A stretch of 56,535 nucleotides of DNA from Elusimicrobia bacterium HGW-Elusimicrobia-2 (GCA_002841685.1 PHAM01000002.1:1-56535); one strand, 5' to 3'; shown: positions 5,843 to 47,104, numbered from the stretch's first letter. The notes: generated by a model from the sequence alone, not told the origin. Numbers and translations are program-made.

Positions 5843-5844
5843 AA

Positions 5845-5900
5845 AAAATGGGGACGGAGGTAATTTAATTTCCAAAAATACAAGGAATTATAATTAAAAA
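5845..5900 (+). mobile_element. Left-arm remnant of the REP/RAYT-associated element family
   Basis: aaaatggggacggaggtaatttaa (5845-5868) equals the left arm of the full unit at 28749. The next ~30 nt (tttccaaaaatacaaggaattata) resemble the spacer of the copy at 20236. No right arm was found before the next gene. Confidence 0.7.
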
Positions 5901-7262: not shown

Positions 7263-10200
7263 ATGAAGTTAAATAGCAGAATGCAAAACGCGAAATGCAG
7301 ATTGCAAAAGTTTAATCTCTTAATCTCTGTTCTCTCAATATTCTTATTGTCTTCTTACGTTTCCGCATCGTTTATAATTGACGGCGGGACGGTCACATTA
7401 AGTAACTCAGCGACGCTTGAGGTTTCAAGCGGGATTGTCGTCGGCGCGGGCGCTGTGCTTGACGGCGGAAGCGCTCATATCAATGTCGCGAGGCGCTGGC
7501 AGAACGACGGGACATTCAATTGCGGGACTTCCACCGTAACTTTTTATACGACATATTCAAGCACACTCACGGGCAACACGACATTTTACTGTCTTGAATG
7601 TAAGACCGCGGCAAAGGAAATCCGGTTTGCCGCTCTTTCAACGCAGACGGTTACGAACGTTTTGACACTTGACGGTTCTATAGGAAATAGAATAAAACTG
7701 CGCTCTACGATTGACGGAACCACATGGTATATTCGCTTGCTCAGCTCGCAGACGGCAAGTTATGTGGACGTAAAGGACGGGAACGCAATTGACCGTACGA
7801 TTTCATGCAGCGAATCTGTGGATTCGGGGAATAACAATGATAAATGGATATTTCTTGCTCCCGATGTGACCGCCCCCTGCGCTATATCAAATCTTACGGC
7901 GCTTACGGGAACGGCCAACGATGGAGATGTTAAACTGGCATGGACGGCCCCCGGAGACGACGGCACAAGCGGTAATATTTCGGGGGGCCTATACAGAATA
8001 AAAGCCGCCACATATTCTGTTACCGTGGATAATTTTGTTTCCATTGCTGATAACGGTTTTTATTCTTTCGCGATTGATATCTCAACTTCTTACAGCACGC
8101 AGGGGACGGAGCACTGTTACACAATGACGGGACTTAATCCGGGGACGACATATTATTTTGGCATTATGACCCGTGATGAAGCGGGTAACTGGTCTTCCAC
8201 ATGGACTGTTTCCGGCGTAAATTCAGAAAATAGCGACCAGTCACTTGACCTCGCACCGTCGGAAGCGGTGGTGTCGGTGATAAGCAACAGTTCTCATACG
8301 GTCAATGTGAGCTGGTCGAAACCGGTACCGGACTATGTGGACGACTTATCAAAATATTATTTATACAAAGCGACATTCAGTTTTTCTAACATAACAACGG
8401 CTAATGTCGTGCACATAGCGACGGTCCCTCATCCGACGGACGTTTATAACGAATCAGGGCTTGTGACAGGCACGACTTATTATTACCGTGTAGTTGTCTA
8501 TGACAAAGGTGATGTCGGTAACGGGCTTTTTAGCAATGTGCTGAATTCCGCTCCATCAAATGAAGCGAGCGCCTGCCCCTTGCCGACGGATCCGGCTAAA
8601 GTAAAAGTGAGTGTTGTTTACGATTCCCGCTCTAACGATAACAAAAATAATTACGGAGTTGTTGACGGGATTGAAGACTGCGACGGGAAAGTTACATTTG
8701 ACTGGCCGTTTATTCCTGACGGTGGCACAATCGTTAATTATTTTATTGAGGTGTCTTCAAATCTCAATTTTACAACTTACTTTTCATCGGCGACAATAGC
8801 GGCGGATGTGAGCACTTACACGGTCAGCGGTCTTTTACGCGGCGAATTTTATTGGGCGCAGGTAAAAGCCAAAAACAGCGAGGGAACGACCGGAGAAGGG
8901 ACGGTTTCAGACGGTATTTATATAAACCGCAAACAGACAGACAGCAATAACTCTGATTGGACGGGGACATATGCGACGGTTACGGACTCTATTACCGTTT
9001 CAGCAGGCGACGCGCTTTGGCGGGACGCTGTGGGCGATCAGAGGGGGGATTTGCACACTTCCAGTCAATTTGATATTTCCTCATTTACAATATCATGCGA
9101 CAAATACAATCTTTATTTTTATTTCAGTTTTGCCAGCACCTCAACTTCCGGATTTGACGGAAGGAATTATTTCCAGATAATGGTTGATAACGACGCATTT
9201 TCCACCGAAAGGGTGTTTCGCGGCAACGGCAATCAGTATCAGGATTCTTATTGCGCGGGTGATGTTCCATGGGAATATTTGATTGAGATTAAAACGGGCA
9301 ATGATATTGTCACCGTTGAAAATTCTCTTTTTTCAAATATGCGGTATGCGAAATATGCGGAGCACAACAGCGGTTATTTCTATGAAATAGCTGTTCCGCT
9401 TGATTTTATGGGCGGCGCCGGTAAGTTTTTAGGAAAAACCGTGAATTTTACCGCGGCTACTTTCTGGAATGACGGCGGCGGGGTCGGCTTGTGCGGCAGC
9501 GACAGCAATTCAAACATTGTTGACGTTGTCACATCATCCGGTACAAATACATGGAACGAGGTGCAGGATAAAGTTGTTGATTATTACTTGCAGGTTACAT
9601 TTTCTACCGCCGGCATTGTAACCTCCGCAGAAGGAAAAAAAGTCGCTCATGTTCCACCCCCGGAGGAGCCTGAGCCGATATCAAACGGCGTTCCGCCGGC
9701 GCCCCCGTCGGCGCTGGATTACATTTTATACAACATGTTTATTGACGCGTGGTATAACGGAGATACATCAAACGACGACATAAACGATACGAATGATTAC
9801 GGCGGTGATTTTCAGGGCGTTATTGACAAAATTGATTATCTTAACGATATGGGGATAAATATGGCATACTTCGGGCCGCCGACGGAATTCGGCGGCGGAA
9901 TATGGGGCTTTAACATAGACGACGCTTTCAGGCACGAAACAAAATTTGGCGGCACGGCAATGTACATTGAAATGGTGAAAGCGCTTCATAACCGCAATAT
10001 TGACGTGATGATTGACTGGGTTTGCGGTCAGGTTGGCAGCAAGGATTCTCCGACGGCAAAGAAAAATCCGACTTATTTTCAAGATGAACAGTTCGGATGG
10101 GGGACAAAACAGGAGTTCGCTGAACCGCGCGCTTTCTGGCTGAATAATATGGTATGGTATTTTTCCATCTGCGATGCCTTCCGTTACGATAACCCTAAAT

Positions 10201-13200
10201 TCTGGAATTACGATATAGGCCCCGAGGAAGCGGAATTCAACAGGGCTCTGAGAAAAATTTCGGACAGATGGGACCCGCAGCTTTTCATTATGGGAGAGAT
10301 ACCGCAAGATGTTGGTGCGGTGAATAATTATACAGGAACACGCGGACCTATGATTCACGGCGGCGAGGATATGAAGTCGGGAGGATATAAAAACGACAGG
10401 GCCGCCCATATTTGCTCGTGGGTAAGAGAAGGAGGCGATAAACAGACCACTGCAACGGCGGCACAGGGTATAAAAGACCAGCAGGTCAACTGGAAAAATG
10501 AATGGTCAATAAATCCGATAATGATGGAAAATCACGATGAGATGAGATTTATTTCAAGAGGTCGCGGCGACGACGGAGCGAGTTGGGGTTACGATTCGCA
10601 GGTGGGTTATATGACGGCGCTGACAGTAGCGGCTCCCGCAATAATTTTCTACGGCGGAGAAATAGGTCTTGAAGGACCTTATGACGGCGGCAATTCCGCA
10701 AAGATGGATCGGGACGGTAATGTCCGTCTTATGGAATTTGACAGAGTGAATATAGACCCGTGGAACAATGTTCAGCCGGCAATAAGACGAACCGTGCAGG
10801 CAAAGGCGAATTTCGCTCCATTGAGAAGCGACCCGTATAAAGATGGCTGGAGTTGGCCGTCATTCACAGCTGACGCCGGTGATGATGTCATGGTTTATTT
10901 GCGCAAATGGGGCGCTGACCAATATGTTCTCTGCATGATGAACCGTGATGATGTTACCAAAAATGTAACTAATGTGCATGGATTGCCTGCAAATGCAACA
11001 TGGAAAAACTGGATGACAGATAATTCCGAAGGCACTTATTATACGAATAATGACGGTTATCTTAATCTTGACGGAAATTACACTATTGATGTCGGTTCGC
11101 ATTATGGTCTGATTCTTGTTAAGGGAGGGTACAGTACTGCTACGGTTTCGGGTGTGGTGAGTGTTGCGAATGCAATCATTGATATTGATGGCAGAAGTCA
11201 CTGGACGACAACCGCCGATTCAAACGGTAATTACGAGATTAAAAGGGTTCTCGCAGGCGATTGGACAATAAAGGCGTGGGTTTTGGGTTATGCGATAAAT
11301 ACGAAGAACGAAACAATTTCTGCAGGAAATAACACTGTTAACTTTACTTTGACCGTTGATAATTCCGCTCCGGCGGCGCCTATATCGCTCGCCGGTCAGC
11401 CGAGAGACAGGGCGGCTATGCTCTCCTGGCAGGCCAACACGGAAGAGGATTTGCAGACATATCTGATTTACAGGAGTCAGTCGCATATTGCCGACGGCTC
11501 TTTTCCCGCTCCCGTTTTTGAAGTTTTTAAGACTTTTTACTATGACAATAATCTTGACGGCGATCTGGACTCGGAAGACAACAGCATAAACCGTCTGCAG
11601 AATGGCACAACTTATTATTATAGAGTTAGGGCAGTTGATAGAAACGGGAATAAGTCGGCTTTTTCAAATGAGATAACTGTTGTGCCGAGGAAGGTGAAAG
11701 TAACTTTCTGGCTGGATGCGCGGGACTGCGGGTGGACGCCTTCAATCGTGAACATCGCGGGAGGGGTGCTGGAATTCAGCGAGAACTATTGGGGGGAAGT
11801 ACCGTTGACATCAAACGGCGACGGAACATATCAGAGGACTTTTGAGTTTGATGACACGACGTTTTTGGAATATAAATATGTTATTGACGGTAACTGGGAA
11901 GGCGCGGCGGACTATAAATTTCTTGATGGGTCATGCAGCGACGCCAACCGTGGAGAACTGATGGATGACGCTGTGCCTGATGTTGAAATAATTGATGAGG
12001 GCGGCGGCAAAATGACAATTGCCAATGTCTGGAAGTACTATAACGACAGAGCGCCGCGTATTCCTTCAGGAATAAGTCTCGAGGCTGTTTTTTGTCAAAT
12101 CACTGTTTCCTGGACTAAGAATGTTGAGCCCGATATGGATTATTATACCGTTCTGCGTTCAACTTACAGCTCAACGGAAGGTTTTTCCGAAATAGCGCGC
12201 AAGAGCTCCGCCGCTAATAATTATGTTGACAAAAATCTGACAAACAATAACACCTATTATTACAAAATCAGCGCTAAGGACAGGAGAGGCAACGAAAGCG
12301 CCTACACATCCGTTTATTCGGATTTTCCGAAAAGCGGGGACACAACAGCTCCGGCCGCTCCGTTGGGGCTCGTTGCTCACGGATACGGTAACTATGGTTT
12401 GGGCGGCATTGAAATTAGTTGGGATTTAAATTCGGAAGGAGACCTTGCCGGATATAATATACACAGGTCAACGGAATCCGGATTTACACCGTCTTCACTG
12501 AATAAGTTAAACAGCACTCTTGTCTCCCCCGAAAAAGATTATTACACAGATACCGGAATTTCGCAGGAAACGACATATTATTATAAACTTGCCGCGGTTG
12601 ATTCGTCCGGCAACTCTTCTCCGTCCAGCTCTCAGCTTTATGCCCGGCTCGTACCGCTTGTTTTTAAGATAGACACCGGAAACATAAATCCGGTGGATGT
12701 CGGAATTTTGGGCAACACGGAACCTCTTTACTGGACGGCATCAAGCACAATGGCTGAAAGCGGAAATGTTTACAGCATAACTATGGGTTTTGTAACGGGC
12801 GCGACAATTCAGTATCAGTTCGGATATAATAATCTTCAAACGAAAGAACAAGGCTTTGCCACGGATTCCGGTTACAGGGACTATCTCGTATCGACGGCAT
12901 CAAGCACGCTGAATCAGAATTGGGAGGAAAACCCCGACGGTGTTTCCGGCGTAATTGCGTATCCCGGCGTGAGTAAGGCCTATATTTATTGGGACAGAGT
13001 GACAACGGCGGAAGATATTGCGGGATATAATATTTACAGAGACGACGGTGTTACGGGGAATCCGACGATTCTTGTGAATTCAAGTCCCGTGAGTTATTCT
13101 CAACCTTATACGGTCGCCGATTTGAATTCGGGAACGAATTATAGTTTTAAAGTGCTTGCCGCCGATTCCGGAAATACGGCGCTGGAAAGCAGCACATGGA

Positions 13201-16654: not shown

Positions 16655-16784
16655 TGGGAGACTGTTCCTCGCCGGCGGATTTTCCGCGAACGCGCGAAAA
16701 GGAAGGTTGAATATAGATGATGGAAGTTGAGCGAAGGTGGAAGATGCGTAAAATCCGCGGTGTAATGTGGGAGGATTTTTGTAT

Positions 16785-19268
16785 ATGAATAAAAGTGTAA
16801 AAATGCGTTTTGCCTGTCTGACAGTAGGCGCGGCGTTTTTCATTTTTCATTTTGCTTGTTCCATGCTTCACGCCTACTCCGGTATTCCGTCGTCAGTGAG
16901 TATAAAAGGCGTTTATATAAGCGGTAAAACACCGTCTCATTTGAAGGAAGGCGATGTGGGCTTCTGGGAAGGCGTCGTTTCTTCAATGACCTGGCAGTCA
17001 ACGGGCACTTGCTGGGGAAAGCCGGTGAGTCTGATACCGGGAAACACATACTATTACAAGTATGCGCTTGAATACGGCACCGGCTCTGTGACGACGCGGA
17101 TATGGGAACAAACTAACTTCTGGCATTCGGTTTATGTCGGTTATGAGAATAATGTTTATCTTGACGGCAACTTCACAAAATCAATTCCGGCCTCTTCGGT
17201 TATGGATAACTGGGCGGGGGCTCCCTTCCCCCCGCAGGATCCTGTTGTGGAAGTTGACGACAGCCGCGTAAAAGTTAAATGGACGGTTCCGCATTTCGGA
17301 GGCTTCGGCCTGCTTGACAATAAGGGTTATCTCATTTATCTTTCGACCGACAATATAAACTGGAAAAATTACAACGACACTTCTACGCTGATATCGCCGG
17401 ATGCCGCGCAGGTTGAGATAGAGTCACTAAAAAACAACGCGACTTATTATCTGAGATTAAGATCTGTAGATAAGTACGATTACGCGGATATTGACATAAA
17501 TTCAGAACTCTATCCCGCCTCGTCCGCTGTCCGTACTTTCCGCTGGAATTATTCTCAAACCGTTAAGTTCAGGCCGAATAAGAGGATAAAATGCAGGTTT
17601 GCGCTGACGTATCCGGGACGGAATGAGATTTCCCTGTCGTTGAACGGGGAAAATTACGCCCTTAAAAAGGAAGGGGAATACTACACCTCATGGGTGACGC
17701 TTACGGAAATGGAGACATACAGTTATTCGTACCAAAGTCCGAGCGCGGAAGATCCCTCCGGCGCAAGGCCGGTAAAAATCATTGATATAGACGGCGACGG
17801 AAAGTTCTATGTTTTTGATACATGGGGAGTGAACACGGCGGATTCTCTGCCGGAGGCGATAATCGGCTGGAAAATTGTCGCAAGCACCGGTGATATTAAT
17901 TTTTCATGGAAGAAAAACCCCGAATACGACGATAATGTGACGGTTTACAAGAGCACCGACGGGCTGAATTGGAGTGTTGTTATTTCTACGGGCGGTTCGG
18001 GCTTTTTGTGGAACGTTTCGCTTGCGGGGAAGAAATATTATTTCGCGATAGGTTCTTTTTTACTTCAGTCCGCGCCGCAGGAAGTGGATACATCAACGGC
18101 TTCCGTCGTGAAAATACCGGAGGCGCTTTTTGTAAGCGGAATAGTGGATCAGAAATTTACAGCCGAGCCTTATTCCGATAAGGTAAAAATAACATGCAGC
18201 GCTCCGTTTAAGAATAATGACTCGTTTACCGGTATATACTGGGTTTTAAAATCGACGTATAATCGGAATATCGTTCAGGGGTCGGAGATTGACTGGGAGA
18301 AATATGAATTTGTTGCGAAAAGGAGAGGTTTTTCGCCGGCTGAGGCGCTGAAGTTTTATTCAAAAATTTCGGATATCCCTCTTCAAACATTTTATCTGTG
18401 GAATATGAATATTTTCGGCAATGGCGAAGTTTATTGTTCCAACCCTGATGTATTTGTCACGCCGCAGGAAGTGGATAAAAAAGGAGGTTATTATTGCAAG
18501 ACAGCCAGTATCTTTTTTCCGAAAACGTCGCTTCCCGCGAAAAAGGCATTTTTGACAATATATGACAGAGAAGAGCTCGCCGCGGCAAATAAGTTTAAAG
18601 AACTTTCGGCGAAGATAGAAGCGGCAAATACGCAAGCGGGGCAGATTTCATATCAGCAGGAAATGGCCACTTCTACGATATTTATGTTCAATCTCAGGAA
18701 AATGGACGGTACCTTGCTGGAAGAGGAATTCAGAAGGCCCGTTGAAATAACTCTGCCTTATCCCGCCGGAGCAGACACGGAGAACATCGCCGCTTTTTAT
18801 CTTGACGAGGAATATAATTTTTGGAAGAAGGTACAAATAGGACCGCATTTTGAAAAACCGGAGATAAACAGTTCCAGCGCTACGATTACTTTCAGGACAA
18901 TGCATTTTTCGGTTTTTGCGCTTATGACGGTTGCGGGAGAACCGGATCTTTCAAACGCTGTAATTTATCCCAATCCTTTTAAGCCTTTTGATAAAAAGTT
19001 TGAGACCGGGGCGGTTTACAGCGAGGGGAATAAGTACTCTGGAATTCATTTTACAAAGTTGACTTCAAATACGAAAATAAGGATATTTACTATTGACGGA
19101 GTGCCGGTGAGAGGCGGTTTGCAATCTTCTAACGACGGCAATTGTGTGTGGGATGCCAAAAATGACGATGGAAGAGATGTGTCTTCGGGGCTTTATCTTA
19201 TTCTTGCCGAGGATCCGAACGCGCTTGGCGAAAAGAAATTTATAGGCAAGGCGGCAATAATCCGATGA
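16785..19268 (+). CDS. Secreted multidomain protein (CBM-like + FN3-like modules) with FlgD-Ig/T9SS-CTD-like C-terminal domain
   Basis: GGGAGG RBS before ATG 16785 (track start GTG 16767). Signal peptide MNKSVKMRFACLTVGAAFFIFHFACSMLHA. FN3-like VKVKWTVP...ATYYLRLRSVD. C-terminal YPNPFKP...IRIFTIDGVPV...WDAKNDDGRDVSSGLYLIL. Confidence 0.75.
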   Translation: MNKSVKMRFACLTVGAAFFIFHFACSMLHAYSGIPSSVSIKGVYISGKTPSHLKEGDVGFWEGVVSSMTWQSTGTCWGKPVSLIPGNTYYYKYALEYGTGSVTTRIWEQTNFWHSVYVGYENNVYLDGNFTKSIPASSVMDNWAGAPFPPQDPVVEVDDSRVKVKWTVPHFGGFGLLDNKGYLIYLSTDNINWKNYNDTSTLISPDAAQVEIESLKNNATYYLRLRSVDKYDYADIDINSELYPASSAVRTFRWNYSQTVKFRPNKRIKCRFALTYPGRNEISLSLNGENYALKKEGEYYTSWVTLTEMETYSYSYQSPSAEDPSGARPVKIIDIDGDGKFYVFDTWGVNTADSLPEAIIGWKIVASTGDINFSWKKNPEYDDNVTVYKSTDGLNWSVVISTGGSGFLWNVSLAGKKYYFAIGSFLLQSAPQEVDTSTASVVKIPEALFVSGIVDQKFTAEPYSDKVKITCSAPFKNNDSFTGIYWVLKSTYNRNIVQGSEIDWEKYEFVAKRRGFSPAEALKFYSKISDIPLQTFYLWNMNIFGNGEVYCSNPDVFVTPQEVDKKGGYYCKTASIFFPKTSLPAKKAFLTIYDREELAAANKFKELSAKIEAANTQAGQISYQQEMATSTIFMFNLRKMDGTLLEEEFRRPVEITLPYPAGADTENIAAFYLDEEYNFWKKVQIGPHFEKPEINSSSATITFRTMHFSVFALMTVAGEPDLSNAVIYPNPFKPFDKKFETGAVYSEGNKYSGIHFTKLTSNTKIRIFTIDGVPVRGGLQSSNDGNCVWDAKNDDGRDVSSGLYLILAEDPNALGEKKFIGKAAIIR

Positions 19269-20257
19269 AAAAGAAAATAGGGACGGAGGTAATTAAATTG
19301 CCAAGAATTCCAATCTTTAGAATTAAATTGAGGTCGTTCACGGAAACAATTTCTTGGATAATTGGCATTTTTATATTTTTAATTACCTCCGTCCCTATTT
19401 TTGGAGCCGGAGAGACGGCGCTTAATTTTTTGAGGATAGGAACTTCCGCTCGCGGCGCCGCGCTTGCCGATTCTCTCGCCGCTGATTATTCTGATTCTTC
19501 GGCGGTGGAATATAATCCCGCCACTCTTTTGACTCTCGAAGGCCGGGAGATTCAGCTGATGCATATAAACCTTTATGCCGATATAGATTATGAATCGCTT
19601 ATTTATGTTGAGCAGTTTGATAAATTTAATCTTGCGCTTTCACTGAACTATCTTCATACAAACGCTCTCCGCACGGTGATAGATACTTCTGATCCATACG
19701 GTTATAAAAATATTGGTAAATTCGTTTTTCAGGATAGATGTTTTGCCGCTACATTTACCCCCCGAAAAGGGATATGGGGAGGGCGGGTGAAATATATAGA
19801 GGAACGAATAGAGGATGAGAAAGCAGGCACTCCCGCTGCCGATTTCGGATTTTTAGTTCCGGGTAAATTATCTTACGGGGCGGCGCTATGCAATATGGGA
19901 CCCGAAATCAAATTTATAGATGTTAAAGAAAAATTACCTCAGACACTGCAGATGGCTGTGAAGCTTAATTTAAAATACATATCCCTTTATTCGGCAGGGA
20001 ATTTTTATATTGACAGAAAAACTTCAGGTGCTTGCGCTATGGAGGCGAATATTATAAATGTTGTATTTCTGCGGGCGGGATATAAGTATATACCAGAGGA
20101 TAACGGGGAATTCCCCGGATTTACATTCGGTATCGGAATTAAGATAAGGGAAATAGGTTTTGATTATGCGTTTATTCCCTTCGGGGAATTCGGCGATACT
20201 CAAAGATTTTCGCTACAGGTGAAATGGGGAAAAAGAAAAGGGGACGGAGGTAATTAA
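19265..20257 (+). CDS. PorV/PorQ-like outer-membrane beta-barrel protein (putative)
   Basis: ATG overlaps the stop of the upstream gene (ATGA). An alternative in-frame TTG at 19298 lies 8 nt after GGAGG. The N-terminus is encoded by the mobile element (…WIIGIFIFLITSVPIFGAG). The mature part starts ETALNFLRIGTSARGAALADSLAADYSDSSAVEYNPATL, which resembles the PorV-family N-terminal motif. It is beta-strand rich and ends ...RFSLQVKW plus 9 element-encoded residues. Confidence 0.55.
   Translation: MKKKIGTEVIKLPRIPIFRIKLRSFTETISWIIGIFIFLITSVPIFGAGETALNFLRIGTSARGAALADSLAADYSDSSAVEYNPATLLTLEGREIQLMHINLYADIDYESLIYVEQFDKFNLALSLNYLHTNALRTVIDTSDPYGYKNIGKFVFQDRCFAATFTPRKGIWGGRVKYIEERIEDEKAGTPAADFGFLVPGKLSYGAALCNMGPEIKFIDVKEKLPQTLQMAVKLNLKYISLYSAGNFYIDRKTSGACAMEANIINVVFLRAGYKYIPEDNGEFPGFTFGIGIKIREIGFDYAFIPFGEFGDTQRFSLQVKWGKRKGDGGN
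19274..19401 (+). mobile_element. 128-bp REPIN/MITE-like derivative of the RAYT element
   Basis: Left arm aaaatagggacggaggtaattaa (19274-19296) is the exact reverse complement of right arm ttaattacctccgtccctatttt (19379-19401). The spacer starts attgccaagaattcc (the first codons of the transposase gene, with ATG changed to TTG) and ends ttggataattgg. It lies inside the 5' end of ORF 19265. Confidence 0.85.
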
Positions 20258-20385
20258 ATTGCCAAAAATTCCAAGAATTATAGAAAAATGGAAGCATGGG
20301 GTTTTGAAGTGAAGCGTTTATTTTCTTTAAAAAATCATTGGATAATTAGTATTCTTGTATTTTTAATTACCTCCGTCCCTATTTT
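20236..20385 (+). mobile_element. 150-bp REPIN/MITE-like derivative of the RAYT element
   Basis: Left arm aaaaggggacggaggtaattaa (20236-20257) supplies the last codons and the TAA stop of ORF 19265..20257. Right arm ttaattacctccgtccctatttt (20363-20385) lies in the 5' end of ORF 20288. The spacer has diverged. Confidence 0.8.
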
Positions 20386-23300
20386 TGGAGCAGGCTGGTA
20401 TTCTTCGCTGATTTTAAAATCGGGAGAGAATATCACGAGTTGTATATCCGGCTTCTCCGGAGTGAGCGTTATTTACGCCGGAGGCGTCTATGGAAGCATT
20501 TACAAAATAGATACATCTTCGGATTCGCCAGTTATGACATATATAACGGGGCTCGGTTCCGAAATTACTGATATGATTTACGAGGACGGTATTATATACG
20601 CCGTTAATAATAAATTGTGGCAAATTGATGCAGAGAGCGGTTTTTCCGTGGTGATAGCTACCAATAACTGCTCATATCAAGCAATTATTGTCTGCGGAGA
20701 TCAATTTTATCTCTCGGACGAATACGGCGTTTTGCGGGAATATAATTCAAGTACCGGAGAAATGACCGAAATCGGTTCTTCGGCTCTTGGTATGACGGAT
20801 ATAGCATATTATAGCGGCGCTGTATTTGCCGTCAGCAGAGACAAATGCCTGTACAGATTTTATAAGAATGCTGGTCAATGGTTACGGGAAAAAATATATA
20901 ATGCCGGAACAAAACTTTATACAATTACTGTTTCTTCTTTTTCCGGCGAGAGCAGGCTTTATATCGGCGGCGCTGATTCGTATCTAAGGGAAATTTATTA
21001 CAAAAACGGCTGGAAAATATTTCCCGTTGATTACACCTCGGGAGGAGTGAACGGTATAGTGACAGCGGATATTACGGGGAGTGATAATATCTATCTTTAT
21101 ACCGACGGAGGAAGCTGGTGGGAATTCTCAAATTCAACTTCCGGATATGTGAAGAAAAATATACTGAATTACGGAGCAGGAATAAATACGGCTTTGTCGG
21201 CGGGGGCGACCCTTTATTTTTTTACCTCGGATAGTTATATGAGTGCGCTGTATTATTCGTCTGTCGCGCTTTCAGGCAAAGGATACAAGCATCAGCCCTC
21301 GGGCAGTCTTGAAATCGGCGGAGCGCCGTTCCCTTACAGAAATCCTGTTTTCCCGCGGAAGGACGAAAAAACAAGTTTTTATTTCACGGATTCGGCAAAA
21401 TCGCTTTCACTTTCGCCCGTGCTTTACTGGAAGCAGAAGAGCTCTTCGTCCTGGCAGACATCGTCATTTGTCTATAAAGAAACGGGCAGCTCTTATTCCG
21501 TTTATTTTACAAGTTGGACTTTTAATTATTCCACGGGGACTGTTATTGATTATTTTATTGCCGCCGGAGGTTATTATATTTTCCGCTCCGGCGAAGATAA
21601 GCTGTCCAATAACTCAAATTATACTTTCGGCATTTCTTCGGCCGCCGCCGCCGCGAAACCGTTTACTTTTATGGTCGCGGGCTTAGGAAATTGTTTTCAT
21701 TATCCCGAAACATCTTTCGGCAATACGGCTTCAATGAGGGGGCCGCGGAATCCTCTGTCCGGGGATGAAATCACTTTTTTCGTAGGCAATCAGGCGTCAG
21801 GTTCGGGGAATTACGGAAATATGAACGGTGGGCAGTTCCATTATCGCGAAAACGGTGTATGGAAAACTTCGCCCATAAACTGGAGTGAAGATATAGGAGA
21901 TTATAAATACTGGAAAACAGTATTAACGTCGACGGGGATGACATCATATTATTTTTCGGTAACTTATGATGATCATAACACTACCTATGTTTATGGTGAT
22001 GACAGTGTTTCCGTGGCGTGCGGCAGTGAGGATGAGGCAAAGGCTTCTCCTTTTACGCTGAATTTTTCCACTGTCGCGTTTAATATAAACCTAACGCCGG
22101 CGGCCACGACTCCTCAGAATTTGCTGATTTATGAAGCCGGCACGTTTATTAAAGCTTATGAAAGCGCCGTAAGTTCTTTCGCAAGCGTGTCGCTTTACAG
22201 CGGCAATTTTGAACTGATTATAAAAGACGGCAATTATCAGACGATTTATGACACTGTTTCATTTTCTTCGGTTTCAAAAACTTATAACCTTTTATATTCG
22301 TCGACGCCGCATTCATTTACGCTCGATGGAAACTGCGAAGGGAATTTTAGCGCGAACGAACTGATAGGGGTTGATTCGCAAAGTGATTCTTCCTGGGGAG
22401 CAAAAAACGATATTTATAATTTGTGGGCCACATTTGATAAGGATAATTTATATCTGGGGCTCAAGGGAGTGCTTGAAAATAATTCCGTTGTTATTTATCT
22501 TGATTGCGGAGATTACCTTGGATCTATAGACGACGCTTCCGCTCTGCCGTGGGCGCAGTCCCGGAATCATAAATTTCCTGACGGTTTCCGGCCGGATTTT
22601 CAGTTTACGTTTTGGGATTTTACAGGGGGGTTTTTTTACAGAATAACTTCCTCAACGACTCTGGATGATGTTACATCGCAGGTTTCTCAGGCGGTTAAAG
22701 GAGGCGGCAGCGGCGAGACGGGTTCCCTTGAAATTAAAATACCTTTTTCTGTAATATACAACGGAATAACGGCATTCGGAATACCCGCCGGCGCGAAATT
22801 AGGCGTTGCCGCCGCTGTGTGCGGAGGAGACGGCACTTCGGCTAAAGACATTATTCCCGATCAGTCCGCGCCTTGCGGCGATACCTTTGACGAATTTTCT
22901 TTTGATAAATGGTTTGTTCTGCCGCTTGATGAAGATATCGACGGCGTTCCTGATACAGGCAGGTATATTGCAGATATAGCGTATTCAACATCCTCCGCGG
23001 CGGCTTCACAGATGGCCGTATCTTCGGGAGAGATAAGCTATAGTAATTTCAACGCGCCGGAATATTTTTACAAAGAGCGTGATATGCCTCTGTCGGTTTA
23101 CAGCGTTGATGCCGACAGCGCCGTTTTGAAATGGAAAAATGCCGCCGAAAGCGTTTATGCTACTTTATATCCGGCGCTTAATGCGTCAACGTTTACATTC
23201 GCGGTGTCTGCGGATTATGTGTTCGGCAGTATTGATTATTATTTTGTCCTCTATAAGGGAACGGAGTCTCTGAATACCGGTGTTTACAACATAGATGTTA

Positions 23301-23968
23301 TGCCTGAAATTGTTTTAACCCCGGGAAGCAGAGAATATTCAACCGGTAAATCTAAAATTATTTTTAAGGAGCCGCTTGAAGACAGCGCAAAACTATTTTT
23401 CCTTGAGCCGGAATCATTAATTACGGATAATATTCTTCCTATTAATCCCGAAATCAATATTTCTACGGATGGTATGCGCTTGCCCGCGGAACTTTATGAA
23501 ATAGAAGGGAATATTCCGCCCGCGTCACTGACTTTGTCTTACTTTGATGATGCGGATGAAGATAAATACGCCGTTTATTTTTATGACGGAAGTAATTGGA
23601 TTTACAAAAACTCGTCGCGTGATATATCCGCCAATACTGTAACTTTTAGCGTAAATCAACACGGGAAAGCCGGTATATTTAAAATAACATCAGCGTCTCT
23701 CGTTTCGGGGAAAAATATTTCGTCCATCAGCAAACCTGTTTTTAATCCCGGTCTCGGAGAGAAGATAGAATTCAATTTCATTCAAACCCCTGCGGTAATT
23801 AAAATTGAGATATTTGATATGAACGGGAGAAAAATAAAGGAGTTGTCGGGGGAATCAAGTTGGGACGGCAGGGATCGGAACAATAACACTGTTCCGGCAG
23901 GAGCATATCTTTATCATCTGGAAACAGATTCCGATGATTTTTGGGGCACCTTAGGCGTATGGAAATAA
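20288..23968 (+). CDS. Large secreted protein: beta-propeller-like N-terminal region, beta-sandwich modules, CBM9-like module, FlgD-Ig/T9SS-CTD-like tail
   Basis: The element-encoded hydrophobic N-terminus is HWIISILVFLITSVPIFGAG. About 6-7 blade-like repeats of ~45 aa follow (IYKID, LWQID, LREYN, LYRFY, LREIYY). CBM9-like module: LDGNCEGNF...NLWATFDKDNLYLGLKG...VVIYLDCGD...SLEIKIPFS. C-terminal tail: FNPGLGEKIEFNF...IKIEIFDMNGRKIKEL...WDGRDRNNNTVPAGAYLYHL. Confidence 0.7.
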   Translation: MEAWGFEVKRLFSLKNHWIISILVFLITSVPIFGAGWYSSLILKSGENITSCISGFSGVSVIYAGGVYGSIYKIDTSSDSPVMTYITGLGSEITDMIYEDGIIYAVNNKLWQIDAESGFSVVIATNNCSYQAIIVCGDQFYLSDEYGVLREYNSSTGEMTEIGSSALGMTDIAYYSGAVFAVSRDKCLYRFYKNAGQWLREKIYNAGTKLYTITVSSFSGESRLYIGGADSYLREIYYKNGWKIFPVDYTSGGVNGIVTADITGSDNIYLYTDGGSWWEFSNSTSGYVKKNILNYGAGINTALSAGATLYFFTSDSYMSALYYSSVALSGKGYKHQPSGSLEIGGAPFPYRNPVFPRKDEKTSFYFTDSAKSLSLSPVLYWKQKSSSSWQTSSFVYKETGSSYSVYFTSWTFNYSTGTVIDYFIAAGGYYIFRSGEDKLSNNSNYTFGISSAAAAAKPFTFMVAGLGNCFHYPETSFGNTASMRGPRNPLSGDEITFFVGNQASGSGNYGNMNGGQFHYRENGVWKTSPINWSEDIGDYKYWKTVLTSTGMTSYYFSVTYDDHNTTYVYGDDSVSVACGSEDEAKASPFTLNFSTVAFNINLTPAATTPQNLLIYEAGTFIKAYESAVSSFASVSLYSGNFELIIKDGNYQTIYDTVSFSSVSKTYNLLYSSTPHSFTLDGNCEGNFSANELIGVDSQSDSSWGAKNDIYNLWATFDKDNLYLGLKGVLENNSVVIYLDCGDYLGSIDDASALPWAQSRNHKFPDGFRPDFQFTFWDFTGGFFYRITSSTTLDDVTSQVSQAVKGGGSGETGSLEIKIPFSVIYNGITAFGIPAGAKLGVAAAVCGGDGTSAKDIIPDQSAPCGDTFDEFSFDKWFVLPLDEDIDGVPDTGRYIADIAYSTSSAAASQMAVSSGEISYSNFNAPEYFYKERDMPLSVYSVDADSAVLKWKNAAESVYATLYPALNASTFTFAVSADYVFGSIDYYFVLYKGTESLNTGVYNIDVMPEIVLTPGSREYSTGKSKIIFKEPLEDSAKLFFLEPESLITDNILPINPEINISTDGMRLPAELYEIEGNIPPASLTLSYFDDADEDKYAVYFYDGSNWIYKNSSRDISANTVTFSVNQHGKAGIFKITSASLVSGKNISSISKPVFNPGLGEKIEFNFIQTPAVIKIEIFDMNGRKIKELSGESSWDGRDRNNNTVPAGAYLYHLETDSDDFWGTLGVWK

Positions 23969-23973
23969 ACAAA

Positions 23974-24101
23974 AAAATGGGGACGGAGGTAATTAATTTG
24001 CCAAGAATTCTAATTTTTAGAATTAAATCAAGGCTGTTTGCGGGAGCAATTCCTTGGATAATTGGTTTTTTTATATTTTTAATTACCTCCGTCCCCATTT
24101 T
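23974..24101 (+). mobile_element. 128-bp REPIN/MITE-like derivative of the RAYT element
   Basis: Left arm aaaatggggacggaggtaattaa (23974-23996) is the exact reverse complement of right arm ttaattacctccgtccccatttt (24079-24101). The spacer is colinear with the copy at 19274. Confidence 0.85.
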
Positions 24102-25332
24102 TGCATATTATAGTTTTGTGGATTTGAAGACAAAAAGTTTGGCCGGGTCACTTGTCTCCTCCGCCTATTCCAATCCCGCTTTGATATGCGGAGAGAAGTC
24201 GCCGTCGCTGTATGCGGAATACAGCGATTTATTTTACGGTTTAAATAAACTTGATAATCCTGTCCAGGGATATTATCCTCCCGATGCGGATAAGATGGTG
24301 CTCGCGGCGATTTTTCCGTATAAAAACTATGGTATGGGAGTGAGCCGTAATTTATTGACCACGCCCATACACAAAGAATCAAAAACTTCTTTTCTGCTGG
24401 CAAGGAATCTCAATGACTTGATAATTAGAAGATTTGAGGAAAGTATAGATGTCGCCGCTTCGTTTAACATCTGCTCTTTAGAGTTTTCTCATTTCCCGTA
24501 TGAAAATTATTCCAACTCCGCCACAACATTTTCCTGGGATTTTTTTATCAGTGCCAAATTCACCGACGGTTTTGAATATGGAATGGCTTTTAAAAACCTC
24601 GGCAATACGGATATAGGTTTTAAGGAAAAAGAGCCTTTGCCCCGCGAATTTAATTTTTCGCTGGCTAAAAAAATTTCAAATATCAAACTGATTTTTTCTT
24701 ATATGGATTGTCAGCAAATACCGGATTACGGGTTTGCGGCCGAATATAATATAAAAGGATTGAATATCATGACGGGAATAAATTCAAACTATTTTTCCGC
24801 GGCCGCTCAGTTCCTTCTAAAAGAGCGCATAGAATTTTCATTTGGGGTTTCCGTGCCTTTTGTCGGAGACATAGCTTTTCAGCCCGATATAGCGGTTAAA
24901 TATTATTTCAGTACAGCCGTCGCGCAGGTTGATAAATTAGGTGAAATGAAAATTTATTATAACAGGGCTTATGAAGCCTATGTCGATAAGCGTTTTGAAG
25001 AAGCGATCCAAAATTGGGAACAAGTGCTTAAACTGAATCCGGAGCATATTCTCGCCAAGAAAAATATTGTTAAAGCCCGGGCAGATTCAAAGAAATATTA
25101 TTTTAATTTAGCCACTTACGAATATAAAATGGGCAATTACGAAAAAGCCATAGATTTTTGGCAGAAAGTTCTTGCTATAGATCCTTCTCATGATTTATCA
25201 AAGCAGAAGATAGAGAAGGCGAGAAAGCGCCTTGAATCCGGAGAGAAACTTTTACCGGCGGTTCCGCGGGATTATGAAAAATTAAAGGAAGAGGGCGGCG
25301 ATAAAGCTCCGCGCGTTGAAAATGAGCGTTAA
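23977..25332 (+). CDS. Putative outer-membrane barrel protein with C-terminal TPR repeats
   Basis: The track start 23941 overlaps the upstream gene. ATG 23977 (or in-frame TTG 23998, 8 nt after GGAGG) lies inside the element. N-terminus MGTEVINLPRILIFRIKSRLFAGAIPWIIGFFIFLITSVPIFA. The segment SLAGSLVSSAYSNPALI resembles the N-terminal motif of the neighbouring barrels. Two TPR units are present (YYNRAYEAYVDKRFEEAIQNWEQVLKLNPEH; ATYEYKMGNYEKAIDFWQKVLAIDPSH). Confidence 0.55.
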   Translation: MGTEVINLPRILIFRIKSRLFAGAIPWIIGFFIFLITSVPIFAYYSFVDLKTKSLAGSLVSSAYSNPALICGEKSPSLYAEYSDLFYGLNKLDNPVQGYYPPDADKMVLAAIFPYKNYGMGVSRNLLTTPIHKESKTSFLLARNLNDLIIRRFEESIDVAASFNICSLEFSHFPYENYSNSATTFSWDFFISAKFTDGFEYGMAFKNLGNTDIGFKEKEPLPREFNFSLAKKISNIKLIFSYMDCQQIPDYGFAAEYNIKGLNIMTGINSNYFSAAAQFLLKERIEFSFGVSVPFVGDIAFQPDIAVKYYFSTAVAQVDKLGEMKIYYNRAYEAYVDKRFEEAIQNWEQVLKLNPEHILAKKNIVKARADSKKYYFNLATYEYKMGNYEKAIDFWQKVLAIDPSHDLSKQKIEKARKRLESGEKLLPAVPRDYEKLKEEGGDKAPRVENER

Positions 25333-26362
25333 TGTAAAAAAAACAATTGATGTTAAGTTGTTGAGCATATATAGATTTTTACTGATTGCTTTCTATTTTT
25401 CATTTTTTATGGCGAGCGCACTTCTTTGCGCGCCGTATCACAGGATTGATATAGACGGGAATCTTGATGAATGGCCGGAGGGGGAAAAGATTGCGAATGA
25501 TATTCACGACGGAGAAGTCATGAATAGAATAGACGCTCTTTACGTCACATGGGATGCGGACAATCTTTACATAGGGGTTAACTATAAACTTGATGACTGC
25601 GGCATGCTGCTTTATCTGGATACTGATTACGGCTTGTCATCCGGCTTTGATGACCTGACAAAAATAGACACATGGAACAAAGGCGCGAAGTTTTCGGCGG
25701 GCGGCTTTCTTCCCGATTTTATGTACGGTTCATGGGACGGTGACGGCGGCAGTTTTTATCAGATTACGAGTTCCCTATCAGCGTCGGGCGTTTCCGCAAA
25801 CTGTAAGACGGATTTCAGTTCGTATGCTCCGGGCACCGAAATATCCATAGGATGGGATACCCTTTTTCCTTCTGGTTTTCCGGCGGGAACAAAAATCGCC
25901 ATGTTTTGCAGTCTGGCCGACGGAACTGCTCTTGCTCTTGACTGCGCGCCGGATAATATTGCGGTTGTGCTTCCTTTAGTGGATACCTGCACGGTGATAA
26001 ACTGTGATTCAAACAGCGATGGTGTGCCGGATAGTTTAAGTTCTTCTAATTTTGAAATTTCCTATGTGCGAATGGCTAAAATATTCTCACCCAATGCGGA
26101 CGGCATAAACGATGATTTGAATATAACTGTCGCACTCACGCAGAGTGCGGATATATATATGAAAGCTTTCAATATTGAAGGAAAAAAAGTGTGGCAAAGC
26201 GCCGGACATTCAGCTGAAGCGGGGGAAACGACGATGACGTGGAACGGCAGGGATTTTTCGGGGGCGATGATTAGAAACGGTGTTTATATTCTGAATATCA
26301 GGGCGGTGAATTCATCGGGTGAAGAAGTGTATAAAAACAAGCCGGTGGCGATAGTCAAATAA
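25322..26362 (+). CDS. Secreted CBM9-like-domain protein with FlgD-Ig/T9SS-CTD-like tail
   Basis: The track start 25316 is TTG; ATG 25322 is used here. Signal peptide ...LLIAFYFSFFMASALLCA. CBM9-like module: IDIDGNLDEWPEGE...LYVTWDADNLYIGVNY...LLLYLDTD...EISIGWDTLF. C-terminal tail: FSPNADGINDDLNITV...IYMKAFNIEGKKV...WNGRDFSGAMIRNGVYILNI. Confidence 0.75.
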   Translation: MSVNVKKTIDVKLLSIYRFLLIAFYFSFFMASALLCAPYHRIDIDGNLDEWPEGEKIANDIHDGEVMNRIDALYVTWDADNLYIGVNYKLDDCGMLLYLDTDYGLSSGFDDLTKIDTWNKGAKFSAGGFLPDFMYGSWDGDGGSFYQITSSLSASGVSANCKTDFSSYAPGTEISIGWDTLFPSGFPAGTKIAMFCSLADGTALALDCAPDNIAVVLPLVDTCTVINCDSNSDGVPDSLSSSNFEISYVRMAKIFSPNADGINDDLNITVALTQSADIYMKAFNIEGKKVWQSAGHSAEAGETTMTWNGRDFSGAMIRNGVYILNIRAVNSSGEEVYKNKPVAIVK

Positions 26363-26363
26363 A

Positions 26364-27230
26364 ATGATAAAAAGATTTGAAATTAAAAATAAGGGAGTGA
26401 AGAAATACTTAATGTCCGTGGCGCGGTTTGATGCGCTGTCTGTTTTAATTATTATTTTCGCGTTTTTAATTTCCTTTCCGGCAGCAGCCTCTTTTGAAAT
26501 GTGCCCCGTCTCCGCGGAGCTGCTGGGGAGGGGCGGCTGGTCGGTCGCCGATGACCGTTTGTCCAGTCTTGATAATTCTGCGGTTACGAGCGAAGTTTTT
26601 AACTGGGAAGCCGGCAGGGCCAATTATTACGGAATAAGCGAACTTAACGGAGGATTTTTGTCATTGCAGATACCGTCCAAAGCGAACAGTTTTAATTTTA
26701 TATACTCCACATTGAAATTTTCTTCAGTTTATCAGGAGAGTGTTTATTCGTTTGCTCTGGCGAAAAATCTGACAAAAAATCTGAACGCGGGCCTGCGTCT
26801 CAACACATACCGGATTGACATCGCGGAATTTGAAGACGGTATTAACACCCGCACAATGTATTCGAATTACGATTTCGCGATTCTGCGCGAAGGGCAATAT
26901 TTTAATTTCGGAGTCTCTTTCAAGCAGCTTTCTTCAAAAGATGTGACGCTGAAAAGCATACCGGAGCGAAATTCTCAGGAAATTTGCTACGGGATTATGG
27001 TTAAACCTGTTAAGGGAGCGAATCTGGGTTTGGATTACGAATTCGGTGAACCGCTGAAGGCCGGGGTTGAAGTTGAGGTGGCGGATGCGCTTAAATGCGA
27101 GATTGGAATAAGAAAAAATATGTTTACGCTCGGATTTTCGCTGAGGATGCCGGGGTTTAGGCTTAATTTTTCAACACTTCTGCACACTGAAATGGGCGAA
27201 ACTTATTTTATATCCATAAGCGGAAAATGA
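26364..27230 (+). CDS. Small putative outer-membrane beta-barrel protein (PorV/PorQ-like N-terminal motif)
   Basis: Starts 2 nt after the upstream stop (alternative ATG 26412). Signal peptide LSVLIIIFAFLISFPAAASF. The segment SAELLGRGGWSVADDRLSSLDNSAV is followed by alternating-hydrophobic strands. Confidence 0.45.
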   Translation: MIKRFEIKNKGVKKYLMSVARFDALSVLIIIFAFLISFPAAASFEMCPVSAELLGRGGWSVADDRLSSLDNSAVTSEVFNWEAGRANYYGISELNGGFLSLQIPSKANSFNFIYSTLKFSSVYQESVYSFALAKNLTKNLNAGLRLNTYRIDIAEFEDGINTRTMYSNYDFAILREGQYFNFGVSFKQLSSKDVTLKSIPERNSQEICYGIMVKPVKGANLGLDYEFGEPLKAGVEVEVADALKCEIGIRKNMFTLGFSLRMPGFRLNFSTLLHTEMGETYFISISGK

Positions 27231-36772: not shown

Positions 36773-36907
36773 TAGGGACGGAGGTAATTTAATTGCTAAT
36801 AATTCCAAGATTTCAAGAAAACAAGTTATTTAATTTATGCCATTTTTAAAAGTAATTTTTAGAATAATTGGATTTGTTGTAATATTAATTACCTCCGTCC
36901 CTATTTT
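36771..36907 (+). mobile_element. 137-bp REPIN/MITE-like derivative of the RAYT element
   Basis: Left arm aatagggacggaggtaatttaa (36771-36792) starts inside the TAA stop of the SBP gene. Right arm ttaattacctccgtccctatttt (36885-36907) lies in the 5' end of ORF 36837. Confidence 0.8.
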
Positions 36908-44945: not shown

Positions 44946-45032
44946 TTTGTGCTGTTTGGAAGCGTCCGCTCTCATGCGGGCATTGGAGGATAAATGACAA
45001 GCGCGAAGAGGATCCGTCTGGGGAAGGGTTTG

Positions 45033-47085: not shown

Positions 47086-47104
47086 AAAAACCTCCTATGC
47101 GGAA

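Follow-up and report, generated by a model that had tools for sequence, protein, structure and literature searches.

Introduction

REPINs are doublets of repetitive extragenic palindromic (REP) sequences that form hairpins and are mobilised by a single-copy REP-associated tyrosine transposase (RAYT) (Bertels and Rainey, 2011, PMC3116915; PMC3337134; PMC5581495). Palindromic elements that lie in frame within protein-coding genes have been described in Rickettsia, where they are called Rickettsia palindromic elements (RPEs) (Ogata et al., 2000, as summarised in PMC2229807 and PMC10969869), and the open reading frames (ORFs) of MITEs (miniature inverted-repeat transposable elements) can be fused to genes, as in Yersinia YPO1552, whose predicted signal peptide is partly MITE-derived (Delihas, 2007, PMC2229807). 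Here we describe a family of inverted-repeat elements in a stretch of 56,535 nt from Elusimicrobia bacterium HGW-Elusimicrobia-2 (GCA_002841685.1, PHAM01000002.1:1-56535; the whole stretch is referred to as the window). The right arms of the complete copies are read in frame as the N-terminal hydrophobic segment of several predicted exported proteins, in which native signal peptides have been replaced. Judged from sequence comparison, the family is probably a REPIN-like element that persists within Sec signal peptides and has come to provide their function in a low-GC lineage of Elusimicrobia.

Results

Five complete copies of the element are present in the window, all at the positions reported in an earlier note on this DNA (Table 1). 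Their repeat core, the 14-mer GGGACGGAGGTAAT, was counted in the window and in dinucleotide shuffles of it (n = 100). Twelve exact occurrences (six forward, six reverse-complemented) were obtained, compared with 0.36 expected from the shuffles, and one further site with 2 mismatches raises the total to 13, a number reached in 0 of 100 shuffles. The cores make up the inverted arms (20-25 bp) of four short elements and one 744-nt element. The region 19265-19410, for example, contains a 128-nt imperfect palindrome whose arms (AAAATAGGGACGGAGGTAATTAAA and TTTAATTACCTCCGTCCCTATTTT) pair over about 25 bp. The left arm combines stop codons in two frames with a GGAGG motif that is followed 8 nt downstream by a TTG or ATG start codon. 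The right arm is the exact reverse complement of the left arm plus a T-run; one of its frames contains a TAA stop, one reads N-Y-L-R-P and the third encodes the hydrophobic sequence L-I-T-S-V-P-(I/F)-F.

In all five complete copies the right arm is read as TTA ATT ACC TCC GTC CCN (L-I-T-S-V-P) in the frame of a downstream ORF of 291-1200 codons with no stop codon between arm and gene, just as the earlier note had claimed. In-frame ATG, GTG and TTG codons downstream of the arm all fall within the region that is conserved among orthologues, and none of them precedes a hydrophobic segment, which also bears out the claim made for three of the ORFs that no downstream start would preserve the conserved N-terminal domain. 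The ORF at 29440 reads MIRKLGIIGKLITSVPFFLCAAFG/EEY (here and below, the slash marks the junction), and its Pfam match to CBM48 begins at residue 26, about 10 residues past the arm-encoded Pro16 and close to the roughly nine residues noted before. The CBM48/alpha-amylase ORF that starts at ATG 36837 reads MPFLKVIFRIIGFVVILITSVPIFA/TEP. The reading L-I-(T/A/S)-S-V-P, continued into a long ORF, is shared by all complete copies of the window and of related low-GC contigs. When orthologous sites are counted once, about 10 junctions from the window, its relatives and two other lineages are all in the hydrophobic frame (chance expectation for ten junctions (1/3)^10, or (1/2)^10 when the TAA-containing frame is left out). 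Complete copies out of frame amounted to 0 among these approximately 10 sites, the two unfused pieces of the window being intergenic solo arms.

Both arms were searched for in a collection with one genome per species and in a metagenome collection. In these whole-collection scans complete copies were found at 10 genome loci and 9 metagenome loci, a count limited by the incompleteness of metagenome-assembled genomes (MAGs). Three further low-GC MAGs carry complete copies, PEUP01 and JAYEJT01 (labelled Elusimicrobia/Elusimicrobiota) and VMTI01 (labelled 'bacterium'), and every one of these copies sits at a site orthologous to a window site. The low-GC matches of the metagenome scan were likewise orthologous to window sites, together with one new site.

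Comparison of orthologues with and without the element was the check that the earlier note had proposed, and it revealed ordinary signal peptides at the element-free sites. PorV homologues that are 71-94% identical to that of the window carry the element and read ..LITSVPIFG/AGETALNFLRIG (one has LISSVP), while the element is absent from homologues of 47-52% identity, which read ..QQALSA/AGETALNFLRIG, ..AIRLHA/AGETAVNFLRIG and ..SQIYA/AGETALNFLRID. One element-free relative, contig L011, keeps the gene order PorV, 1209-aa protein, TPR protein and CHU_C protein, and no arm was found on this contig within 2 mismatches. Its PorV protein reads ..FAIRLHA/AGETAVNFLRIG (window: ..LITSVPIFG/AGETALNFLRIG), its 1209-aa protein ..FLVPPKAPA/DWYYSAILKSGE (1226 aa in the window: ..LITSVPIFGAG/WYSSLILKSGE) and its TPR protein ..SSGFVWG/YYSFTDVK (window: ..LITSVPIFA/YYSFVDLK). 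At all three sites homology begins 1-3 residues past the element, at the predicted signal-peptidase site; in the TPR protein the mature part YYSFVDLK begins one residue past copy 3. Since homology starts at the predicted cleavage site in three proteins, the element occupies the former place of the native signal peptide. The converse case is given by the maltose-binding lipoprotein (35396-36772), which is element-free in the window and has a native signal peptide (MKNQKLKLFVFFIAAIAAINS/CGRPG). In its orthologue on contig L015 the element follows codon 3 (MKNKGDGGN...FFGYLIASVPFFA/CGKK), and element sequence takes the place of the signal peptide as far as the lipobox Cys; in L015 as in the window, the gene overlaps the upstream permease gene by ATGA.

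The element-encoded N-termini were scored by simple measures, namely charge, Kyte-Doolittle hydropathy and the residues at -1 and -3. The presequences have an n-region charge of +2 to +6, and the best 12-residue mean hydropathy is 2.0-3.1, the range in which the native signals of orthologous proteins and of other genes in the window also fall. Position -1 is occupied by A or G and position -3 by I, A, F or G; native signal peptides in this genome also have L or I at -3. Where the arm abuts the cleavage site directly, Pro is found at -4; in the CBM48 and Kelch proteins host-coded residues lie in between. In two lipoprotein-like cases, the maltose-binding protein of L015 and a 132-aa protein of L025, Cys is found at +1. 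The fused proteins comprise a PorV/PorQ-family outer-membrane protein (NCBIfam, 121 bits), type IX secretion system (T9SS) cargo with C-terminal sorting domains, CBM48 glycosidases and a solute-binding lipoprotein. For the amylase, a search against 1.84 billion representatives returned one 91% relative that also has LITSVP; the next relatives are at most 48% identical and align only from residue 46-119, too internally for a comparison of the junction. All of these distant relatives start with ordinary N-terminal signal peptides, which points to an exported family. A 12-sequence profile of the element-encoded N-termini gave 2106 word candidates in the protein database and none at E <= 10, the query being too short. 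Taken together, native-like charge, hydrophobicity and -1/-3 residues and the comparison with relatives agree with the claim that the element supplies a signal-peptide-like N-terminus, and they suggest that these peptides serve as Sec signal peptides and that the proteins are exported and cleaved.

The way in which translation may start differs between copies. Only at copies 1 and 3 do the arm GGAGG and TTG read directly into the gene, and in copy 1 the entire element is open in frame, with the stop codon of the PorZ-like gene at 19266-19268. The arm GGAGG also precedes an ATG that starts the transposase gene at 28773. At copy 2 the arm TTG (20259) opens an upstream ORF (uORF) of 18 codons including the stop, and its TGA (20310-20312) overlaps a GTG at 20309 (GTGA) whose product reads MKRLFSLKNHW..LITSVPIFGAG; the L010 orthologue of this copy has a TTGA overlap and an internal AGGAG. 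At copy 4 the arm TTG (36793) opens a uORF of 19 codons including the stop, and the TAA (36847-36849) lies 10 nt past ATG 36837. The ATG of ORF 29440 lies in the 3' end of the transposase gene and this ORF overlaps the transposase stop TAG (29445-29447). Of the earlier description of the element as a portable cassette of ribosome-binding site, start codon and signal peptide, the part on ribosome-binding site and start codon is thus literally true of copies 1 and 3 alone, and the others would use coupled internal starts. GGAGG-type Shine-Dalgarno sequences are present at operon-first genes of the window genome, and because such sequences precede other genes the left arm is a credible ribosome-binding site. 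In two related contigs (L027:994-1098 and L028:854-958, minus strand) a spurious 34-aa gene was called antisense inside the element; automatic gene calling there set the start of the TPR gene downstream of the element, and the public MAG annotation of these loci is inconsistent.

The elements are also tightly joined to the genes upstream. At 9 of 9 junctions checked, the upstream stop codon is found at about -17 to +16 nt, counted from the first base of the left-arm core. It is positioned either just 5' of this core or within the TAA of the arm, and in the latter case a GDGGN tail is added to the upstream protein. The TAA stop of the PorV-family protein (20255-20257) is supplied by the left arm of copy 2. 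This protein ends with ..RFSLQVKW followed by GKRKGDGGN (20228-20257), the last 9 residues and the TAA being derived from the A-run and the left arm, while in PorV orthologues that are element-free or joined differently the last residue is the usual aromatic one (..LWMRF, ..LGVKF). A tail past the C-terminal signal of the beta-barrel could affect outer-membrane assembly. A response regulator on L026 (8132 region) gains a matching GDGGN tail before its stop.

At the RNA level the short copies are predicted to fold into stems of 19-25 bp (-43 to -54 kcal/mol, z -4.5 to -8.5) in which the GGAGG is buried; copy 1 reaches -50 kcal/mol (z -6.3) and copy 3 -54.4 kcal/mol (z -8.5). A promoter and terminator scan of 18.5-37.5 kb gave counts at shuffle level, with loops limited to 3-8 nt so that the long hairpin was outside its reach. 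In 23 copies, pairing is kept in 366 of 368 cells of the 16-bp core. Both-sided changes occur at three core pairs (G-C to C-G in L024, which reads LISSVP; U-A to C-G in L015, which reads LIASVP; A-U/G-C at position -1), and all one-sided core changes (7/7) are G·U in the sense orientation. The covariation score of the core was 0.092 compared with 0.063 in shuffles, and 0 of 500 shuffles reached it. Between species the arms are invariant, while the interiors and the synonymous sites of the flanking genes vary. The interiors, too, are mobile between sites: the 139-nt interior that in the window precedes the gene for the 1226-aa protein is found at the PorV gene in the close relatives P0001, L003 and L016. 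As interiors are exchanged among sites, recombination between copies could contribute to arm identity. The Rfam scan of the whole window at gathering thresholds gave no match, indicating that the element is not a described RNA family.

The arms of the 744-nt element flank a transposase gene (224 aa) with a Pfam match to Y1_Tnp (IS200-like; 46.5 bits against a cutoff of 23, E 4.9e-12). Its sole NCBIfam match is NF047646 REP_Tyr_transpos, the REP-associated tyrosine transposase family, with 63.4 bits, which is under the curated cutoff of 80. Its sequence displays an HUH motif (NHVHLII) as well as YIELNSVMAGL...YRWSS, homologues of the subfamily have 223-232 aa and 37-81% identity, and more distant homologues carry the JGI name RayT. 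The protein begins with MPRIPRF at an ATG 8 nt past the GGAGG of the left arm. The short copies retain the GGAGG, a TTG at the matching place, the codons for PRIP(I/L)F and the last approximately 20 nt of the long element (TTGGAATAATTGG). From these shared arms, first transposase codons and 3' end, the short copies are concluded to be internal-deletion derivatives of the 744-nt element. Terminal inverted repeats and such an origin from an autonomous element are also what defines MITEs. The ends of the 744-nt element are perfect inverted repeats and no second ORF was found in it, which sets it apart from autonomous insertion sequences of the IS200/IS605 type; elements of that type have differing subterminal hairpins left and right, no terminal inverted repeats and often tnpB. 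A single arm folds only trivially (-3 to -6 kcal/mol with flanking bases) and is therefore not a palindrome by itself; it has no GTAG, and its CGTC lies inside the arm and not as a terminal tag. Direct repeats flanking the copies were not seen, the A-run and T-run being part of the inverted repeat. Y1 transposases are not known to make target-site duplications. Inverted copies of the repeat flank the transposase gene in the window, in L022, L026 and L027/28, and in L006 from Rhodanobacteraceae, and in the window, L022, L027 and L028 the gene has a shared position between a gene for a protein of about 500 aa and the CBM48 gene. The best explanation of these features is that the repeats are the autonomous and the internally deleted copies of a REPIN-like element belonging to a RAYT-type Y1 transposase. 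The 17-mer arm gave no match to viral contigs, so there is no evidence of a phage vehicle.

Two other lineages carry related elements. On L026 the transposase is 59% identical and lies in a different neighbourhood, the arms are identical, and the frame of the right arm continues into the gene for a Kelch protein of 1328 aa that has a Por_Secre_tail domain (MGKIRQLITSVPIFFFTSALFASA/IITED). A second short copy on this contig lies between a response-regulator gene, which ends with ..GDGGN in the left arm, and the gene for a 477-aa protein that begins LPKFHKIPKKFQVIFLGIVSIFIFLITSVPFFA/FTTAENLY. On L025 the transposase is 60% identical, and an arm variant (GGGACGGAGGAAAA and TTTTCCTCCGTCCC) reads F-S-S-V-P; two tandem right arms past the transposase gene are read as MTKISTKLLKLFSSVPILLLSSVPIF/CGG, starting at a GTG in overlap with the stop codon of the transposase gene. 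The 17-nt arm GGGACGGAGGTAATTAA is also present in Rhodanobacteraceae/Xanthomonadaceae MAGs of 61-68% G+C, with GC-rich, unrelated interiors. There (L004, L006, L009, L019 and L023) it forms extragenic doublets and tandem clusters, with four forward arms in L019, and on L006 the arms (for example 158-181 and 945-1027) flank a RAYT that is only 33% identical to that of the window; these arms lie between Pfam-verified genes, as classical extragenic REPs do. These extragenic arms serve as a natural control and indicate that the coding use is specific to the low-GC lineage. That the arm is conserved across phyla despite the divergence of the transposase may reflect a strict recognition constraint or horizontal transfer, both being possible.

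Beyond the five complete copies, the window contains a solo left arm and a solo right end (Table 1). The solo left arm lacks a start codon at position +18 and is joined to no gene. The solo right end is read as a 34-aa ORF (44893-44997; MIVKIGIVGKLITSVPVFLCC...; MIVKIGIVGKLITSVPVFLCCLEASALMRALEDK) that is not joined to a long ORF. The TGA of this small ORF overlaps the ATG (44994) of a cytoplasmic MerR-like gene with its own GGAGG, and it could be a remnant leader ORF.

Table 1. Copies and parts of the element in the window (cores are the 14-mer arm cores).
Feature	Position	Strand	Parts	Size and context
Short element, copy 1	19274-19401	+	left-arm core 19280-19293; GGAGG 19285-19289; TTG 19298; right arm (LITSVP) 19379-19396, core from 19382	116 nt core to core; between PorZ-like gene and PorV/PorQ-family gene
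Short element, copy 2	20236-20385	+	left-arm core 20241-20254; right-arm core 20366-20379	139 nt core to core; 5' of gene for 1226-aa protein with T9SS C-terminal domain
Short element, copy 3	23974-24101	+	left-arm core 23980-23993; GGAGG 23985-23989; TTG 23998; right-arm core 24082-24095	5' of TPR protein gene; TTG in frame
Full-length element	28749-29492	+	left-arm core 28755-28768 (Shine-Dalgarno sequence for transposase); right-arm core 29473-29486	744 nt; Y1/RAYT-type transposase ORF 28773-29447 between arms
Short element, copy 4	36771-36907	+	left-arm core 36775-36788; right-arm core 36888-36901	127 nt core to core; between maltose-binding protein gene (stop 36770-36772) and CBM48/alpha-amylase gene
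Solo left arm	5844-5894	+	core 5851-5864	intergenic; ~115 nt 5' of ORF 6009
Solo right end	44889-44951	+	reverse-complemented core from 44926	intergenic; 81% identical to right end of full-length element

Several of the elements lie within an apparent operon (16767-28738) that resembles a T9SS attachment complex in a lineage outside the Bacteroidota. It encodes a PorZ-like protein (weak, 43 bits), the PorV/PorQ-family protein, the 1226-aa protein with a T9SS C-terminal domain, the TPR protein and a protein with a PorU/FlgD-Ig-like C-terminus. Other repeats in the window are of a different kind. ORF 31584-32588 contains three tandem units of about 315 nt (31645-32577; 64-87% identity) that are repeated CBM48-like modules, with related CBM48 segments at 3488, 29545, 31275 and 37179, and three consecutive small genes (46694, 47175 and 47599, within 46694-47660) share their first 24-62 nt (ATGAATAAATTAGCCGAGAGCAGAA.., MNKLAESR..) and form a tandem paralogue family. 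The element-free contig L011 has long intergenic spacers (7700-8000 and 12560-13140) with other repeats, including tandem units (GTGAAAAAGTAAAAATGTAGCGGGCGATGTAAATCGCC) in which a GTAG tag is followed by a short palindrome and which resemble classical REPs.

Rearranged junctions were seen at the 139-nt element in relatives (L018:4172-4310, L007:7681-7819 and L003, minus strand, 113). On L018 the end of the PorZ-like gene is joined through this element straight to the gene for the 1226-aa protein and the PorV gene is missing, and the element at the PorV gene of VMTI01 and L016 has the 139-nt interior; it is common for contigs to stop at the element. Such PorV junctions result either from a recombination event between adjacent copies or from a collapse of the assembly at the repeat. 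As an account of the elements themselves an assembly artefact was rejected, because they lie inside contigs of many independent assemblies; for the apparent deletion of PorV on L018 it is still a possible cause.

Discussion

The arms, their common frame, the replacement of native signal peptides and the conservation of the sites across species make it likely that a REPIN-like element has become the source of Sec signal peptides in this lineage. The elements occupy precisely the gap from one gene's stop codon to the first mature residue of the exported protein that follows, in place of its native signal codons. Translation of the downstream gene would start inside the element, either at the Shine-Dalgarno sequence and TTG of the arm or at an internal start that is coupled to an arm-initiated uORF. 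The interior would encode the basic n-region and the first half of the hydrophobic h-region, and the right arm the rest of the h-region and the Pro-containing c-region, with one to three host codons giving the -1 residue (A or G) or the lipobox Cys. The family may have arisen by insertion in or beside the most sequence-permissive coding segment of a compact operon; selection would have retained only in-frame, co-oriented copies, and the redundant native signal sequence would have been lost. Arm identity could be maintained by selection for pairing or by recombination between copies. With the Shine-Dalgarno sequence buried in a stem, expression would probably need co-transcriptional or coupled translation, for which the geometry suits some copies better than others. 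The earlier note had offered as its own alternative that the element is only tolerated when inserted in frame at signal-peptide positions. Toleration in frame at hydrophobic positions, followed by co-option, is the version that we prefer, because an intragenic, apparently transmembrane copy (L025), the low copy number and the extragenic behaviour elsewhere fit it best. With the native signals lost, the proteins can probably no longer do without the element-encoded peptides.

Several observations weigh against this interpretation. The Shine-Dalgarno sequence lies within a near-perfect stem of 20-25 bp, and initiation should be strongly inhibited unless the stem opens. At copy 1 the upstream stop lies 5 nt before the stem, where a terminating ribosome opens little of it, so that the idea of coupling fits the copies unequally. 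A hairpin followed by a U-run also resembles a terminator, and gene conversion alone, without selection, could account for the identity of the arms. Orthologous copies are not independent, and the truly independent sites behind the frame count number only about 8-10, which is modest. In the 116-nt copies the uncharged stretch of 20-24 residues is long for a cleaved signal peptide, and these N-termini might be signal anchors. One further observation argues against a dedicated cassette and favours toleration followed by co-option: L025 has two arms in frame within a 654-aa protein just before its TPR domain (..KKISSRFSSVPILLFSSVPILLYFSAL..), a stretch that looks like a transmembrane helix.

The element might instead be a mobile signal-peptide module, in which the element itself, or recombination between its identical arms, actively swaps native signals and spreads a shared leader (Shine-Dalgarno sequence, start codon and LITSVP) as a selected, domesticated cassette, possibly adding co-regulation or a common targeting route to what would otherwise be mere tolerated selfish DNA. 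Native signal codons are replaced at every site and not just interrupted, both junctions are tight to coding sequence, interiors swap between sites as in the PorV genes of P0001, L003 and L016, the sites have been conserved since before the divergence to 71% PorV identity, and the arms are invariant at synonymous positions. We nevertheless regard this as rather unlikely, as segment replacement by a Y1 transposase has no known mechanism, the family is of low copy number and all copies in four related MAGs sit at sites orthologous to those of the window, with no sign of ongoing spread. The variant arms of L025 within an apparent transmembrane segment, and not a signal peptide, and the presence of the arms in Rhodanobacteraceae as ordinary extragenic repeats also speak against it.

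A selected function at the RNA or DNA level was considered as well. The hairpin could sequester the Shine-Dalgarno sequence and thereby enforce coupling, attenuate transcription or be an RNase III site, with LITSVP as a by-product. A stem-loop is known to occlude the ribosome-binding site of IS200, and RNase III is known to process the hairpins of Neisseria Correia elements. The very stable stem that buries both GGAGG and start codon would suit such a role, as would the conservation of the arms at the nucleotide level including third codon positions, the compensatory and sense-oriented G·U changes, the narrow placement of the upstream stop at all nine junctions and the stop/start overlaps at 20309 (GTGA) and in L010 (TTGA). 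It leaves unexplained why every copy is in the single hydrophobic frame and abuts the cleavage site, however, and the exported proteins still need a signal peptide, so that it would complement co-option as a signal peptide and not replace it. Symmetric changes of the arms could also be produced by gene conversion or by repair of single-stranded-DNA hairpins, and the geometry at copy 1 is poor for coupling. We consider this reading improbable.

That the arms are ordinary, untranslated intergenic repeats, with true starts further downstream and open frames that are coincidental or over-extended, is very hard to maintain: one gene caller did place the start of the L027 TPR gene downstream of the element, one arm frame is open by chance and AT-rich hydrophobic codons are common, but about 10 of 10 sites share one frame, starts inside the conserved sequence would yield proteins without a hydrophobic N-terminus although signal peptides are present in all relatives of these proteins (an outer-membrane protein of the PorV family, T9SS cargo, a lipoprotein and secreted glycosidases), and between element and mature domain there is no space for another signal sequence. 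A conserved leader shared by descent among paralogues was rejected, as the genes are unrelated, the arms flank a transposase gene and in another phylum the arms are non-coding.

Co-option as a signal peptide may be combined with a role of the RNA. As a tentative extension, which we hold to be possible but more doubtful than not, a single duplex would have three roles, as the recognition repeat of the transposase (DNA), as a hairpin of Shine-Dalgarno and anti-Shine-Dalgarno sequences that gates or couples translation in operons of exported proteins (RNA) and as the h- and c-region of a Sec signal peptide (protein), its identity kept by selection and exchanged by recombination. If so, the element would amount to a signal peptide that is mobile, shared and equipped with its own control of translation.

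By definition REPs and REPINs are extragenic, and whether the host benefits from them is a matter of debate; in the present case a REPIN-like family seems to persist in coding sequence as a signal peptide, and several conserved proteins of secretion and starch utilisation appear to depend on it for translation start and export. If this is correct, signal peptides are a niche for selfish DNA, as they tolerate almost any hydrophobic sequence, and the ribosome-binding site of a transposon and its complement can be co-opted as a leader peptide, a natural form of signal-peptide swapping by mobile DNA. In practical terms, gene callers are inconsistent on element-borne starts and MAG assemblies break at the repeat. 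The system would also be suited to study how ribosomes initiate at a Shine-Dalgarno sequence that is buried in a 25-bp stem.

Among described systems, the element resembles REPIN/RAYT. A RAYT-type Y1/HUH transposase lies between inverted short repeats, the short non-autonomous copies are predicted to form long hairpins, and the transposase keeps its chromosomal position in related species, consistent with vertical inheritance. It differs in that a single arm is not a palindrome, whereas a REP is a short imperfect one that usually has a GTAG or CGTC tag, in that the copy number is very low against the tens to hundreds of extragenic copies of REPINs, and in that the NCBIfam score for RAYT is below the cutoff (63 vs 80). 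Moreover, the copies overlap coding sequence, the arm being the Shine-Dalgarno sequence of the transposase gene and its complement being translated, as far as can be predicted, in neighbouring proteins. IS200, which also belongs to the Y1 family, is said to be regulated by a stem-loop that occludes the ribosome-binding site, following work by Beuzon and co-workers in 1999. The same burial of the ribosome-binding site in an RNA stem is predicted for the Elusimicrobia element, but its stem is completed by the far terminal repeat, which in the short copies lies within the coding sequence of the next gene.

The likeness to RPEs is one of arrangement. RPEs are palindromic repeats of about 100-150 bp that are translated in frame in conserved host proteins, tolerated at permissive positions and conserved across species; the Elusimicrobia repeat too lies in frame within conserved proteins that have empty-site orthologues, and is predicted to be translated. 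RPEs occupy positions in the mature protein that are considered structurally permissive, and no functional module is replaced by them. They also have no associated transposase, whereas the Elusimicrobia element would bring translation start signals and a whole signal peptide, and its niche is hydrophobic N-terminal or transmembrane segments.

Our literature search returned no paper that links REPINs or RAYTs with signal peptides and none that contains the 14-mer arm. What is new is the linkage of such an element to a RAYT, the systematic replacement of native signal peptides with empty-site controls, and the use of the Shine-Dalgarno sequence of the transposase gene and its complement as the two halves of one module. 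Besides the in-frame RPEs, the nearest precedent is provided by the MITE fusions of Yersinia YPAL/RU-2 and enterobacterial ERIC, in which the MITE ORF is likewise rich in hydrophobic residues. The YPAL case concerns a single hypothetical protein that is possibly a new gene, whereas in Elusimicrobia the native signals of identifiable exported proteins are replaced at about six sites, with recurrence in two other lineages and with empty-site controls.

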